Made by a program: the position numbers
DNA from: Octopus vulgaris
Lineage: Eukaryota
Reading direction: 5' to 3'
Assembly: GCA_951406725.2 (NCBI GenBank)
Contig: OX597838.1
Span: 19,220,001-19,284,000, forward strand
DNA: 64,000 bases
In this document: in pieces, positions 33,440 to 45,400 of the stretch
How positions within the stretch are numbered: the stretch's first letter is position 1
How the letters are laid out: each line of letters opens with the position of its first letter

Positions 33440-36400
33440 GTATAAATACTCACACATACACAAAGATCTGATTCCCTCTGTCTTTCTTAAAAATCTCTTG
33501 AGATTGTCTGCGTACAATAATTAATTGAATCTCTGTGATAAGAACTTCTTAATTACTTCATTAAGGCAATGTTGTGTATACACTTTAATTGTACCAAGCC
33601 TATGCATTCTAGTCACGTACTCCCCCACTTTGTTTTAAACCAAAGAGTAACGCTCTAGTCAATTATTTTGGTTTTATAAATCCTCCATAGCTTTACTTCA
33701 ACCATAAAAGTCACTATATTATATTTGAAAACAAAATTCTGCATTTACTTAAAAACAGATCCTCCCCCCACAATTCAAAAACGAAGTATTATTGAATACT
33801 ATTATTAGTAAATATCAAGTGATTTAATATCCTTAAGAAAATCCATATTATAATTTGTCATGTTCATTTCCCCTTGAAAATCCAGGACCCTTTTGTCCAA
33901 TGTAATATCCTTATCACTGTTGTCTTCCTGAAAAGGAAGGGAGATAAATGTTTTTTTATGTTCCCTTTGAAATTTGTAAAATCAAATTTTCCCTAAGATA
34001 TATTAGCTACACTTTACTTATGTAGTACTCCTCTTTTTAGGTATAATTAGTCTTAGACGGGTTAAGTATGGATAATTCAAAATAGCTCAGAATATTCTGA
34101 TATTCTAATTTGTTTGTGTGCATTTAGAATTGTGGAGATTGAATTTGAAGTCATTTAATTAAACTGTAAGATAATTTTTACAAAAGAAAAGAAGCATCAT
34201 CATCATGTTAATTAACACTTAGAATATAACGACATACTTTAGATGCTCGACACTAACAAGGCTGCAGGTCTTAGTTGTAGCATTGTGTCAGATTTTAGTG
34301 AGGCTCTTGTGTTTGGAAAAGTGTGTTTGTCTGTGTAACTAAGTAGGAGATATGCAGATGGCTGAAGAGAAGAAGGTGTCCGGAAACCATGCAAGTTTGG
34401 AGAACTTACAGCAAGTACCACTGTCACAGAAAAGTGTTGAGCAGATCATTACATTTCCTTGGAGTCGTGACCATTCGTTGAGCTGCTACCATGGCTTGGA
34501 CCAGAATGTCAAACCTGGAGAATACGTCCTTCTCACACTCTTCATGGAGTTCTGTTCAATTACTGAACACAAGATCGAACAAGTCCTTGCTGAACCACTT
34601 AAAAACCATTTTTCTAAATCTCTACAAAGAAATGAGGACCCCCAGTTTGACCAGCTGCTTGCCTCCCTCGGCTGTGTGGCTGAACAAGGCCTGCCATCTC
34701 TCCTGCATTCCTTTCTTAAATGGTATGAAAAACAGTCACTTGTTGACAACAGTCACCTCCTTGATCGTTACCGTATACGAAATAAAGGAGAAAAAAACTT
34801 CCTGTGCGAGCGCCGTGAACTGGCTGTTGATTATGTTTATTGTTTGGTGCTGATTGAGATCTTACCGAAACTCTCATACCACCCAGGCCATGATGAACTT
34901 GTCACATGCATTATCAACCAGGGGTTCCGGCATTTCAAGTACAAAGATGGTTTACAGGCAAATCCAAATGCTGGCAATATCAAACTGATTTCTAGTCTGT
35001 ATGCAGAGGTGATCGGTGTTCTAGCCCAGTCTCGGTTCCCACCGATTCACAAGACTTTTCTCAATGAGCTGAAAGAACTGAAGCTCCGTGACCAAACACC
35101 ATTCACGGCACAAAGTGTTATTAGCCTGTTGATGGGCCTGAAGTTCTTCCGTGTCAAAATGCACCCAATTGAAGATTTTGAAATGTGTGTCCAGTTCCTG
35201 CATGAGTTGGGTCAGTATTTTCTCGAAGTAAAAGACCGGGATATCAAACATGCCTTAGCCATGTTGCTTGTGGAAATCCTACTGCCTGTTGCTGCCCAAG
35301 CAAAAAATGAGGTAAACGTCCCAGTTTTGAAGAATTTTGTCGAGATGCTCTACTCAACCACCATTGATATGACCACGAAAAAGAAACACACTCTTCATTT
35401 ATTCCCTCTGGTCACGTGTCTGTTGTGTGTTAGCCACAAACAATTCTTCCTTAGTAACTGGCCATACTTTCTCACAATGTGTTTGTCTCAGTTAAAGAAC
35501 AAAGAAGCAAAGATGTCACGTGTTGCCCTTGAATCTCTCTACCGCTTGCTCTGGGTCTACATGGTGCGGATTAAATGTGAAAGTAATACAGCCACCAGGA
35601 GTCGACTTCAAAGCATTGTGAACAGTCTCTTTCCAAAAGGCTCAAAGATGGTAACACCACGCGACACACCGCTTAATATTTTTGTCAAGATCATTCAATT
35701 TATTGCTAAAGAAAGACTGGATTTTGCTATGAAAGAAATAATTTTTGACTTACTCTGTGTTGGAAGACCAATCAAATTCTTGACACCAGAAAGAATGAGT
35801 ATTGGTTTGAGAGCCTTCCTAGTTATTGCCGACAGCTTACAGCAGAAGGATGGTGATCCTCCGATGCCTCAGTCTGCAGCAACATTACCTTCTGGCAGTA
35901 CAGTCCGTATCAAGAGAACATTTTTGAACAAAATGCTGAGTGAGGAGACAGCCAAGGACATTGGTCTATCATGCTACTATCCTCACATCCTGAAAACCTT
36001 TGATTCAATCCTTCGTGCTTTGGATGTGCAAGTAGGTCGTCCATTATTACAGACAAACTCTGAAAACACGGGGAAAGAAGTTGACGAACTCATCACCAGC
36101 GACCGTAAACCTAAAATCGACTTATTCCGCACATGCATAGCTGCAATTCCCCGCTTGATACCCGAAAACATGTCAAGCCAAGAACTTGTCGAACTGCTTA
36201 CCCGTCTGACAGTACACATCGATGATGAATTAAGAGGTTTAGCATTTCAAGCTTTGCAGAACCTGATGCACGAATCTCAAACTTTCAAAGAACAGGTCAT
36301 TCGAGGTTTTGTGCAGTTTATTCAGCGTGATGTCAGCGACACAGCATCTCAGCCACTGGACGGTGTTCTCCGTATGTTAGTGCAGCTGCTAGTCCAGTGG

Positions 36401-42400: not shown

Positions 42401-45400
42401 TTCATGCATATCCTTGACACGCTGTTTTCCCAGATGGAATGTCCGTATGTGTTTGTCCAACCAGAGTCTCTGTTGGAGAACAGTATTATTGACCGACATA
42501 AGTTCTGTGTCCTGGAAATTCAGGAGTGTTTAGAAATGCTAAGCATGCGACTCACTCAAGCCGAACAGTGTCTCGAGACAATGAAGTCCATGGCATTTCT
42601 CGAGCCTCTAAATGAAGGTGCAGCCTCGGCCGATGCGAGGAATTCCAGTATTGATGACCAGAAGGGGGAGATGTGTCGACAGCTCTACAAACTGCTTTTC
42701 CAGCTGGTGTTACTCTTCGAAAGTTTCATTAAGGTCGTCGATATCTTCCAGAACCTGACTTTGACCGGCCAAGCTTTAGACATGTCCAGCCAACTGGCAA
42801 CGATAAAGCAGGAGCTTGCTGCCAGCCTGTCGGAGCTTCAGACCGGTCACACGTCACCATTGTACTTTGATACGCAAATCACACCAAAGCAGGAGGCCAT
42901 TGCATATCTGCTGGAGTACCTGCAAGGAAAGCAACATCTTAGTACTCTGCAGCTCTTGCGGATGTTCCGATACCAGTGGCCATCAGACGTCTTTGGAACA
43001 ACCGAAGATGATGACATCATAGCTTTACTAAACATTTATTGCAGCTGCGTTGCCCAGACGACAGGCATATTTGTGCTTATACATCCAGAACCGGACTTTG
43101 GCCAAGTGTATAGCTTACTGATGGAAGTAAACAGTCTTTTGTCTTCCAGATGGCCTCATTTAGTATGTCACATTCACAGAAATGAAATTAGTATTAAACC
43201 ATCAGATTCTAGTACATTCTAGAAAACATTATTTTAAACATTTCTTCAAAAACACATACACAAACACACATCCCACAAAAAACAAAACAAAAAAACAAAA
43301 ACAAACTTGAATCCATTTTTACAGGTAAACCAAATGAAACAGTCATTAAAAAATTCATTTTTTTAATTTAAAAATATATTAACAAGACATTGTTTTTAAT
43401 TTTAAATTCAATAAAAGATTTAACATGTGAAAAGAATTTTAAATAATGTAAAATAATTAAAAATCTAAATACATAATAAATTAAAAAAAAAAGAAGTGAA
43501 ACTGTTGTGAATCTCAATGAGATGTGGTTTGGGATTGAAACCTGAACCTTTGAGACCAAACTGAACTGAATATCTTTGTACCTTTTTGACTCTGAACAAC
43601 TGCTGCTTAATGCATTTATTGAAGATATAAAAGTTTACCAAAATGATTTATCATCACCGTGTTTTCAACAGTTTTATGTGTTTATATTTTTTCATCATCA
43701 ACATCATCATCAATGTCATCATCATTATCGCCATCATTCATAGATTTACATCCATTTTCCATATTGGCATGGCTTGGGCAGTCATGTCTGCTCTCCTGAA
43801 TGGGTCAAGGGACTACCTCTCATTCATGGGTTTTATTTTTGGTTCGGTTTCTTCAGCTCGGTATATATGCTTCCTAGTGCCGTCCACTTTACACAGGAGT
43901 ACTGGGTGCATTTCATTTTGTGGTACTAACACCAGAAAAATTATTGTCTCTTCAATAAGCCTAAAGCTCCTTGCAACCCTACACTTATACAGAGTAGACT
44001 AGGCACATTTTTTTGTGGCATCAGCATGAGAAAGACTAGGAGTGAGAGAATGATGGCTAGCAAGAGGTAAGAGTGAGTGATGGCTGTCAATGTCAAATGG
44101 CAAGTTGAGTGTGTAAGTAGAGTTTGTGAGGCATGTTCATGTCTAATGAGATCCCTTAAGTATTTTTCTCAAGATGGTGAGAGAGTTAATGGGATATGGA
44201 CCAGGCTCAAGGTTTAGTGGCTAGCGATCTACACATACTGGGCGCCACTGCATAGTGCCAAGGACTCCAAGTTTGCCATCAAGATGTAGGACAAGATACT
44301 GTGATAGCCTGGGCTTCAGAGGCCCACAACTCTTCAATATCCTCCCGAAGAACCTGAGAGACCTGCATGGGGTGGATGCAGATGTCTTTAAAATAAAACT
44401 GGATCTCTTCCTGTCAGGTGTCCCAGATGAACCAACTTCACCGCAGGAGGTGCAGATGAGGGCAGCTGCATCGAACTCTCTCATGCACCAAATGGCAATT
44501 GCTAAAAAGCATTCGTGAAGTAAAATCATGTAGCAACACCAAATGATGGCGGTGCCCCAGCATTGCCATAGCTCGTGAGCTGAAACTAGATAAAATTTAA
44601 GAAAAAAAAATTTAACACAAACACATAAATACACACACATACACATGAATAAATTGACTGCTATCTTTAGTTACATCAGCAGCAAAATAGAGTGTGAATG
44701 ATCAAGAGGTGAGCAATGGGAGTATGGGCGATAAAACAAGGGTGATAGAGACTGGAGAAGATAATAGGGAGACAAGAGATAGGTGTGTTACAGAGACGAG
44801 AAGCTGCCAAGGACCCCAAAAACATAGATACACATGTATTCATCATCATCGTCGTTTAACGTCCGTTCTCCATGCTAGCATGGGTATTCATATATATGTA
44901 AATCTGAAGTTATAAACTGATATTCTCTCTTTTACTTATTTCAGTCATTTGGCTGGAGCACCACCTTTAGTCGAGCAAATTGACCCCAGGACTTATTCTT
45001 TGTAAGCCTAGTACTTATTATATCGGTCTCTTTTGCTGAAAAGCTAAGTTACGAGGACATAATCACACCAGCATCGGTTGTCAAGCAATGCTAGAGGGAC
45101 AAACACAGACACACAAACACATCCACATATATATATACATATATACGACAGGCTTCTTTTAGTTTCCGTCTACCAAATCCACTCACAAGGCATTGGTCGG
45201 CCCGAGGCTATAGTAGAAGACACTTGCCCAAGGTGCCACGCAGTGGGACTGAACCCGGAACCATGTGGTTGGTAAGCAAGCTACTTACCACACAGCCATT
45301 CCTGCAAATCTGAAGTTATAAACCGATATTCGCTCTTTTACTTGTTTCAGTCATTTGACTGCGGCCATACTGGAGCACCACCTTTACTCGAGCAAATCGA

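Follow-up and report, generated by a model that had tools for sequence, protein, structure and literature searches.

How does an octopus come to encode an entire Furry protein in one 8.9-kb exon, when Furry genes elsewhere are multi-exonic? The question is raised by a 64,000-nucleotide (nt) stretch of Octopus vulgaris DNA (GenBank assembly GCA_951406725.2, contig OX597838.1, positions 19,220,001 to 19,284,000 of the forward strand), which we refer to as the window and in which positions are counted from the first letter. Furry is a large scaffold protein that activates NDR-family kinases and is known for its part in dendrite tiling and cell polarity. An initial annotation, made from the sequence alone, had read a 2956-amino-acid (aa) Furry in a single exon at 34352..43222 and had proposed either a functional retrogene or the wholesale loss of introns in place. 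Our analysis upheld the single exon, with an open frame and four domains in order, and identified the gene as one of two Furry copies of coleoid cephalopods, here called copy A (the gene in the window) and copy B. We consider it likely that the 8.9-kb exon is an ancient, very long functional Furry retrogene.

The coding sequence (CDS) of copy A runs from ATG to TAG in one uninterrupted exon, and an in-frame stop codon immediately upstream means that the frame cannot reach further in the 5′ direction:

34352..43222, plus strand: complete CDS of Furry copy A, 2956 codons and TAG, identified as a single open frame with Pfam and protein matches.
34340..34342, plus strand: in-frame TAA, 9 nt upstream of the copy A ATG, read from the sequence.

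When all six frames of the window, which contains no N, were compared, the stop-to-stop frame of copy A measured 2959 codons and the runner-up 247. At the base composition of the window the probability of a stop is 0.062 per codon, which puts ln P for a run of 2959 open codons at about -190. GC content is 0.45 within the frame versus 0.37-0.40 in the flanks. The exact 2956-aa protein is already present in NCBI/UniRef, on two contigs of up to 45.6 Mb, which means that the published gene model and the whole frame coincide. All four Furry domains were found in copy A above the curated Pfam cut-offs and in the canonical N-to-C order:

34808..36400, plus strand: MOR2-PAG1_N (PF14222), aa 153-683, E 4.4e-156, 521.5 bits against a cut-off of 27, profile 1-558 of 559.
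39713..40075, plus strand: MOR2-PAG1_mid (PF14228), the best of 5 stretches, aa 1788-1908, E 5.3e-39, 134.1 bits.
40505..41260, plus strand: MOR2-PAG1_C (PF14225), aa 2052-2303, E 5.2e-65, 220.1 bits, profile 2-252 of 252.
42218..43135, plus strand: Fry_C (PF19421, metazoan), aa 2623-2928, 273.4 bits.

Alignment with gastropod and bivalve Furry proteins covered 98-100% of the query at 55-58% identity. A match over that length implies that copy A contains no inserted foreign sequence, in keeping with the earlier statement that no transposable element interrupts the frame. By every sequence criterion tested, copy A is a member of the Furry family; a biochemical function in NDR-family kinase activation, cell polarity and neurite patterning would follow from this membership, and the interaction of Fry with the NDR-family kinase Trc is described in PMC2868802.

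Whether an intronless CDS is simply the rule in molluscs can be judged from Furry genes in other species. Short open reading frames (ORFs) that match only part of the protein were found in gastropods and bivalves. In oyster ORFs of 71-73 aa, on contigs of ~5.7 kb, only the middle 62 aa match Furry (residues 675-736), and the match is preceded by a phenylalanine-rich run and followed by a valine codon starting with GT. A 73-aa ORF of Pomacea, present on 9 contigs of up to 7.5 kb, starts with an 11-aa N-terminal flank that has no Furry match, and a 90-aa ORF of Biomphalaria has non-matching flanks at both ends. Exon-sized ORFs were also present in a Mytilus trossulus cluster (72 aa) and in the P0024 cluster (101 aa, contigs up to 231 kb). 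The boundaries of the exon-like fragments fall at about window aa 582, 699, 773, 1616, 1646, 2582 and 2654, and the copy A frame reads through all of them. In addition, 4-10 Furry isoforms per locus are annotated in Haliotis, Pomacea, Biomphalaria, Babylonia, Mizuhopecten and Mytilus. Taken together, exon-like fragments and isoforms indicate that the Furry genes of gastropods and bivalves carry introns. Outside the molluscs, a 3′ genomic piece of Drosophila fry comprises 5 exons and 4 introns (PMC2868802) and mouse Fry is described with separate exons 1-3 (PMC6881260).

The initial annotation had spoken of the Furry orthologue, in the singular. The assignment to Furry stands; the uniqueness does not, as coleoid cephalopods hold two co-orthologous genes. 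It had recommended a search for an intron-bearing paralogue; our protein searches led to copy B, which is rich in isoforms, lies on other contigs and is the sister of copy A. The identity of copy B with the window protein is 55% in BLASTP alignments and 60.8% on trimmed columns, and it measures 2910-3017 aa versus 2956 aa for copy A. Seven distinct copy B sequences are present in O. sinensis ('protein furry isoform X1-X8') and five in O. vulgaris. These 12 sequences vary by a 7-aa N-terminal segment, a 1-aa indel, cassettes of 8, 6 and 20 aa and an alternative C-terminus, differences that we read as signatures of splicing. The 90% cluster of copy A holds only the window protein and an O. bimaculoides model, that is, one sequence per species and zero isoforms. 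The 1-aa indel of copy B, of the alternative-acceptor type, falls at window aa 1644 and adjoins the start of the Pomacea exon at window aa 1646, which suggests that copy B keeps an ancestral intron near window aa 1644.

Both copies are present in Octopus, Argonauta and Sepia pharaonis, copy B being represented in the last two by one Argonauta protein and by a cluster that contains a S. pharaonis fragment. They occupy separate contigs in Argonauta (18.3 Mb and 5.4 Mb) and in S. pharaonis (2.96 Mb and 0.95 Mb); in Octopus, the longest contig with copy A measures 45.6 Mb versus 59.4 Mb and 80.0 Mb for copy B. No named Nautilus protein appeared among the Furry matches listed. When residues 440-760 of copy B were compared with shorter proteins, the best matches (64-72% identity) included no cephalopod, and no octopus exon fragments were found.

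A careful tree (LG+C20+F+G4/PMSF, 23 rows, 2640 columns) placed copies A and B as sisters within the molluscs with support of 100/100, the A clade and the B clade each receiving 100/100 as well, and a quick tree of 35 rows agreed. The sister group of the cephalopod pair was formed by gastropods plus bivalves. Octopods and decapodiforms are found in each of the two clades, which makes the duplication older than the octopod/decapodiform split, an event a few hundred million years old. Approximately unbiased (AU) tests were run under LG+G4, which rejects true clades slightly more often, on groups named after inspection of the tree; they rejected a clade of octopod A with octopod B, as expected from a separate octopod duplication (p 7e-10), a position of copy A outside B, gastropods and bivalves (p 8e-5) and a position of copy B outside the other molluscs (p 7e-7). 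Judged from these trees, the duplication is specific to cephalopods and predates the split between octopus and cuttlefish. In the quick tree two Mya arenaria proteins (P0034 and P0040), encoded on the same 93-Mb contig, were near-identical, with branch lengths of 0 and 0.0013; they are probably two models of one locus and not a second bivalve paralogue.

The single long frame of copy A recurs in other coleoids. The O. bimaculoides model ('protein furry, partial', on a 35.5-Mb contig) is collinear with the window protein and identical to it at 2787 of 2817 positions, with 7 gap positions. The Argonauta hians copy A protein is 94-95% identical to the window protein, and a cluster at ~83% identity includes a S. 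pharaonis protein. In P0130, which is decapodiform-like, a 44.6-kb contig carries copy A as a frame of 2936 aa, and copy A is probably intronless in decapodiforms as well. Full-length copy A proteins of decapodiforms were also found on contigs of 9-13 kb in at least 7 records, which are either transcripts or further intronless genomic copies. The intronless copy A probably dates from before the octopod/decapodiform split and is no oddity of O. vulgaris.

We then compared the rates of the two copies. Sixteen non-cephalopod rows have 606 invariant columns in common; of these, copy A keeps 555-560 (560 in the window protein) and copy B 542-555, and both copies look functional. In the careful tree the stem branch is longer in A (0.24) than in B (0.12), and the crown branches show the reverse (0.07-0.09 in A, 0.27-0.38 in B). 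Changes were counted where the other paralogue and two outgroups agree. Those shared by octopus and decapodiform numbered 77 in A and 46 in B, and those specific to the octopus and decapodiform lineages numbered 22 and 21 in A versus 136 and 78 in B. Identity between octopus and decapodiform is 85.7% for copy A and 65.4% for copy B. These values indicate that copy A went through an early burst of change and then a freeze, and that it is today the more conservative of the two. Judged at the protein level, copy A is an intact frame of parental length under purifying selection.

The ends of the protein follow a similar pattern. The copy A start MQxA[ED][ED]KK...LENL and tail ...IKPSDSSTF are kept by octopods and decapodiforms alike. 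This tail is similar to the ...DSS[ST][LF]-type ending of gastropods and bivalves, which octopod copy B (P0021, P0141, P0029) has lost and with which an interaction motif might have been lost. Decapodiform copy B has yet another C-terminal ending. Near the N-terminus, decapodiform copy A (P0004, P0122, P0130) carries a Gln/Pro-rich insertion of ~50-60 aa between ...LENL and ...QIITFPW that is missing from octopod copy A. A further low-complexity segment is specific to copy A:

36644..36784, plus strand: His/Gln-rich low-complexity insert, aa ~765-811, with a tandem repeat at 36712-36762.

This insert differs by one 6-aa repeat unit between the window and O. bimaculoides and is absent in copy B. 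It is Q-rich in decapodiform copy A, and lies directly after the conserved ...LLKEVRNIF motif, at the position of an oyster exon-exon junction.

The flanks of the frame bear on how copy A could be expressed and on what might be left of its origin. The initial annotation had proposed an intron in the 5′ untranslated region (UTR), and an A-rich tract beyond the stop codon as a decayed poly(A). The features of the two flanks are as follows:

24700..24997, plus strand: putative non-coding first exon with a provisional 5′ limit, followed by the donor AAG/GTAAGT at 24998 (splice consensus only).
24998..33059, plus strand: putative 8.06-kb 5′-UTR intron with the acceptor (Y)n CAG at 33059 (splice consensus only).
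33060..34351, plus strand: putative 5′-UTR part of the coding exon, 1292 nt with 17 ATG triplets, from the sequence.
43247..43305, plus strand: A/C-rich microsatellite with an A-rich tract inside, from a tandem repeat search.
43345..43480, plus strand: candidate polyadenylation signals in a likely 3′-UTR, ATTAAA at 43345 and 43456 and AATAAA at 43410 and 43475, from the sequence.

Both proposed splice sites (24998 and 33059) are present and match the consensus well, and the AGGTRAGT donor at 24998 is the only one in 24-26 kb. A second pyrimidine-rich acceptor would be followed by an exon start at 33245. The 5′-UTR intron is plausible and stays putative, as splice consensus is what defines it. 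Within the putative leader lies an (AT)n/(ATGT)n microsatellite (33378-33448). On the 3′ side, the A-rich tract is present at 43277-43305, 55 nt past the stop codon. Of its 29 bases 25 are A, a density that no other tract on the plus strand reaches. It was not taken as evidence of a decayed poly(A), being part of an A/C microsatellite and having no upstream signal, with zero AATAAA or ATTAAA between the stop codon and the tract. A neutral poly(A) tail is in any case not expected to survive over such an age. The signals at 43345-43475 are better candidates for the 3′ end.

Other repeats were noted in these flanks. A T-rich tract at 24571-24600 is the only one so dense on its strand. Long (TC)n/(CT)n-rich repeats (24765-25354) stand on either side of the putative first exon, and the GC skew goes down to -0.30 in 24-26 kb. 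The putative 5′-UTR intron contains a 589-bp (TA)n microsatellite (26148-26736) and more (AT)n up to 27314, with GC down to 0.27. Two tandem duplications, at 31258-31622 (184 bp x 2, 95%) and 44900-45702 (399 bp x 2, 87%), both contain motifs such as ...ATCGACCCCAG... and are probably copies of interspersed repeats.

Of the two origins first proposed, a retrogene or the loss of introns in place, their common ground stands, namely an intronless CDS in a gene that is multi-exonic elsewhere, and the retrogene is favoured now that a second paralogue has been found. A spliced, full-length mRNA of an ancestral multi-exon Furry gene would have been reverse-transcribed and inserted at a new site, giving rise to copy A with its intronless CDS. 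This would have taken place in the cephalopod lineage after its separation from gastropods and bivalves and before the octopod/decapodiform split, and the intron-bearing parent would persist as copy B. At its landing site copy A would then have gained or exploited a promoter, probably together with a non-coding 5′ exon, and would have changed quickly at the beginning before coming under strong purifying selection. A single retroposition would explain why there is an extra copy, why it lies on another contig and why not one CDS intron is left, and the long stem branch of copy A suits a gene that had to adapt to new genomic surroundings. Both the RNA-mediated duplication and the transcription of copy A from the proposed 5′ exon are inferences. 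Several observations weigh on the other side. A target-site duplication was not found: direct repeats shared by the two flanks reach 13 nt at best, in a word of low complexity whose length was matched or exceeded in 13 of 100 controls of the same geometry and in 5 of 100 shuffles. Nor did any of the 551 ORFs of at least 45 aa outside the Furry frame contain a reverse-transcriptase or transposase Pfam domain. Such missing hallmarks are expected at this age, and neither support nor refute a retrogene. A retrocopy usually evolves faster than its parent, and copy A conforms to that pattern in its stem only. In Tajima-type counts, octopus A has 238 unique changes versus 372 in B (p 6e-8) and decapodiform A 271 versus 305 (p 0.16; the difference is not significant with 3 of 4 outgroups), so the slower copy A might be the resident gene. 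The copy A frame of P0130 stops ~74 codons short and closes with a divergent tail, ...NVFGVIRRG, for which a frameshift, an error of sequencing or an intron at the 3′ end could be responsible, and the copy A model of S. pharaonis deviates at both ends. Finally, the introns of copy B are deduced from its isoforms.

A slower copy A would be at home in a different scenario, in which a DNA-level duplication in the cephalopod stem was followed by the replacement of the whole CDS of one copy through recombination with a cDNA, only the 5′-UTR intron being left; copy A could then occupy the ancestral locus, and copy B would be the duplicate that was displaced. It would suit a copy A that looks more ancestral and has fewer unique changes than octopod B, its ...DSS[ST][LF]-type tail and the lack of retroposition hallmarks. 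The retained 5′ intron would be the classic outcome of a 3′-biased loss mediated by reverse transcription, with which the consensus at 24998/33059 is compatible. However, two rare events are needed here rather than one, and all CDS introns would have to be removed at once in an intron-rich genome in which the TIMM10 and LENG1-type neighbours are split. The stem branches (A longer than B) also suit a new context, and separate contigs carry A and B in each of the three lineages examined. We regard this scenario as unlikely, if deserving of attention. Strict loss of introns in place, from a sole copy at the ancestral locus, does not describe a lineage in which a second copy exists. To an ancestral intronless state in molluscs or lophotrochozoans generally, a danger of which the initial annotation was aware, we give practically no credence. 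No supporting evidence was found for it, and it is opposed by the intron-like flanked ORFs of oyster, Pomacea, Biomphalaria and two bivalve-like clusters, by the isoforms of six gastropod and bivalve genera and of copy B, and by the multi-exon fry and Fry genes of Drosophila and mouse (PMC2868802, PMC6881260). An artefact of mis-assembly or of contaminating cDNA is very improbable, and so is a processed pseudogene that goes unexpressed and is still open by chance. The initial annotation had foreseen the first of these, and the same long frame is found in the independent assemblies of O. bimaculoides (collinear over 2817 aa), Argonauta, S. pharaonis and P0130, and the flanks in the window are ordinary AT-rich genomic sequence with microsatellites. 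As for a dead copy, an 8.9-kb frame that has been open since before the coleoid radiation, keeps 92% of the invariant residues and has the vanishing ln P given above cannot be neutral. We retain the retrogene as the likely origin of copy A.

The genes around copy A are divided into exons:

2666..2876, minus strand: TIMM10 coding exon 2, TGA at 2668-2666 (zf-Tim10_DDP, 63.7 bits, profile 16-63 of 64).
11311..11384, minus strand: TIMM10 coding exon 1, ATG at 11384-11382, donor GT at 11310-11309 (read exon by exon).
51060..51161, plus strand: Cir_N / LENG1-type internal exon, approximate limits, followed by GTAAGT (36.6 bits, profile 1-28 of 37).

The 8.4-kb intron attributed to TIMM10 in the initial annotation was recovered, the two exons, which were read separately and unjoined, being 8434 nt apart (intron 11310..2877, with consensus GT and AG). 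Exon 1 ends in ...AACAG/GTCAGT at 11311/11310 and exon 2 is preceded by ...TTTTGCAG at 2877/2876. ESS2, listed there as another neighbour, was not recovered: no Pfam Es2 match was detected in the 551 ORFs of at least 45 aa across the window or, from 11.3 to 24.7 kb, in the 150 that were scanned among 161 ORFs of 28-44 aa, a scan of short ORFs whose sole match was a sub-threshold zf-C2HC_2. Five of the 551 ORFs had a Pfam match with E <= 0.001, and two of these exceeded the curated cut-off (zf-Tim10_DDP and Cir_N). No Rfam families or tRNAs were found in the window. Between TIMM10 and Furry, at 19836-19979 on the plus strand, a sub-threshold TM225-like match (E 8.5e-4, 19.8 bits versus a cut-off of 27) could mark an exon of some unrecognised gene. 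The second-longest frame of the window (15850-16593, plus strand, 247 codons) has no Pfam match and is overlapped by three antisense frames of 131-170 codons (15949-16657, minus strand); its openness looks compositional or repeat-driven and not that of a gene.

Most functional retrogenes are short and young, and a testis bias is seen in many of them. The protein of copy A was already annotated publicly; as a retrogene it is noteworthy for its size, age and conservatism. The largely open-access literature covered, without its supplements, listed no paper on the structure of a cephalopod Furry gene and no size record for retrogenes, and PMC3759375 yielded no exon count. Reverse transcription commonly truncates copies at their 5′ end (PMC5470649). 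It is possible, though on balance doubtful, that copy A, having passed through its burst of change, became the principal, conservative Furry of coleoids and took over the ancestral role together with the ancestral C-terminal tail, leaving the parent free to diverge and to specialise through alternative splicing, a retrogene replacement that would have stopped half-way and stayed so from a time before the coleoid radiation. If so, copy A would be among the longest functional retrogenes described; an mRNA of ~9-10 kb could be retroposed in full length, and an intronless gene of this size could be expressed sufficiently for an essential function. The locus offers a natural opportunity to test by what means a very long gene without CDS introns gets expressed, for example through an acquired 5′-UTR intron and promoter. 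Comparative studies of cephalopod Furry must separate copies A and B.

Copy A can be set beside several known systems. Vertebrate FRY and FRYL arose by genome duplication. As in that case, a single ancestral Furry was doubled in coleoids, independently, into two full-length paralogues with four domains; unlike FRY and FRYL, which are both multi-exonic, one coleoid copy has no CDS intron, and a single fixed isoform of one copy stands beside a richly spliced other. This contrast is of relevance for a protein with a part in dendrite tiling and cell polarity, since coleoids are animals whose nervous systems are large. Intron loss mediated by reverse transcription yields an intron-free CDS and often leaves 5′ introns, but it acts in place and makes no second copy, whereas coleoids hold an isoform-rich sister copy on other contigs. 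A close likeness is with human TAF1L, an intronless locus of 1826 aa whose one 6216-bp transcript holds 38 canonical TAF1 exons (PMC11423858). Both are full-length intronless coding copies of a large multi-exon gene whose parent is retained, TAF1L on another chromosome and copy A on another contig. TAF1L is nevertheless young (~95% identical to its parent) and testis-restricted, with a CDS of ~5.5 kb, whereas copy A has a CDS of 8.9 kb, is ~55-61% identical to its paralogue, predates the octopod/decapodiform split and is more conservative than that paralogue. In amphioxus, AmphiSYCP1 is a single coding exon of ~3.2 kb that replaced a gene multi-exonic in most animals; it is old, common to several species, and took its regulatory sequence and 5′-UTR exons from the landing site (PMC5803294), an example of the recruitment of non-coding 5′ exons for which retrogenes are known. 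Orphan retrogenes, which have lost their parent, show higher sequence conservation (review PMC5470649). Copy A differs from AmphiSYCP1 and from human orphan retrogenes in that its presumed parent survives, copy B being present in Octopus, Argonauta and S. pharaonis, so that its replacement of the parent is at most incomplete. Against the comparators checked, TAF1L and AmphiSYCP1, a CDS of this length stretches the known size range of retrogenes.

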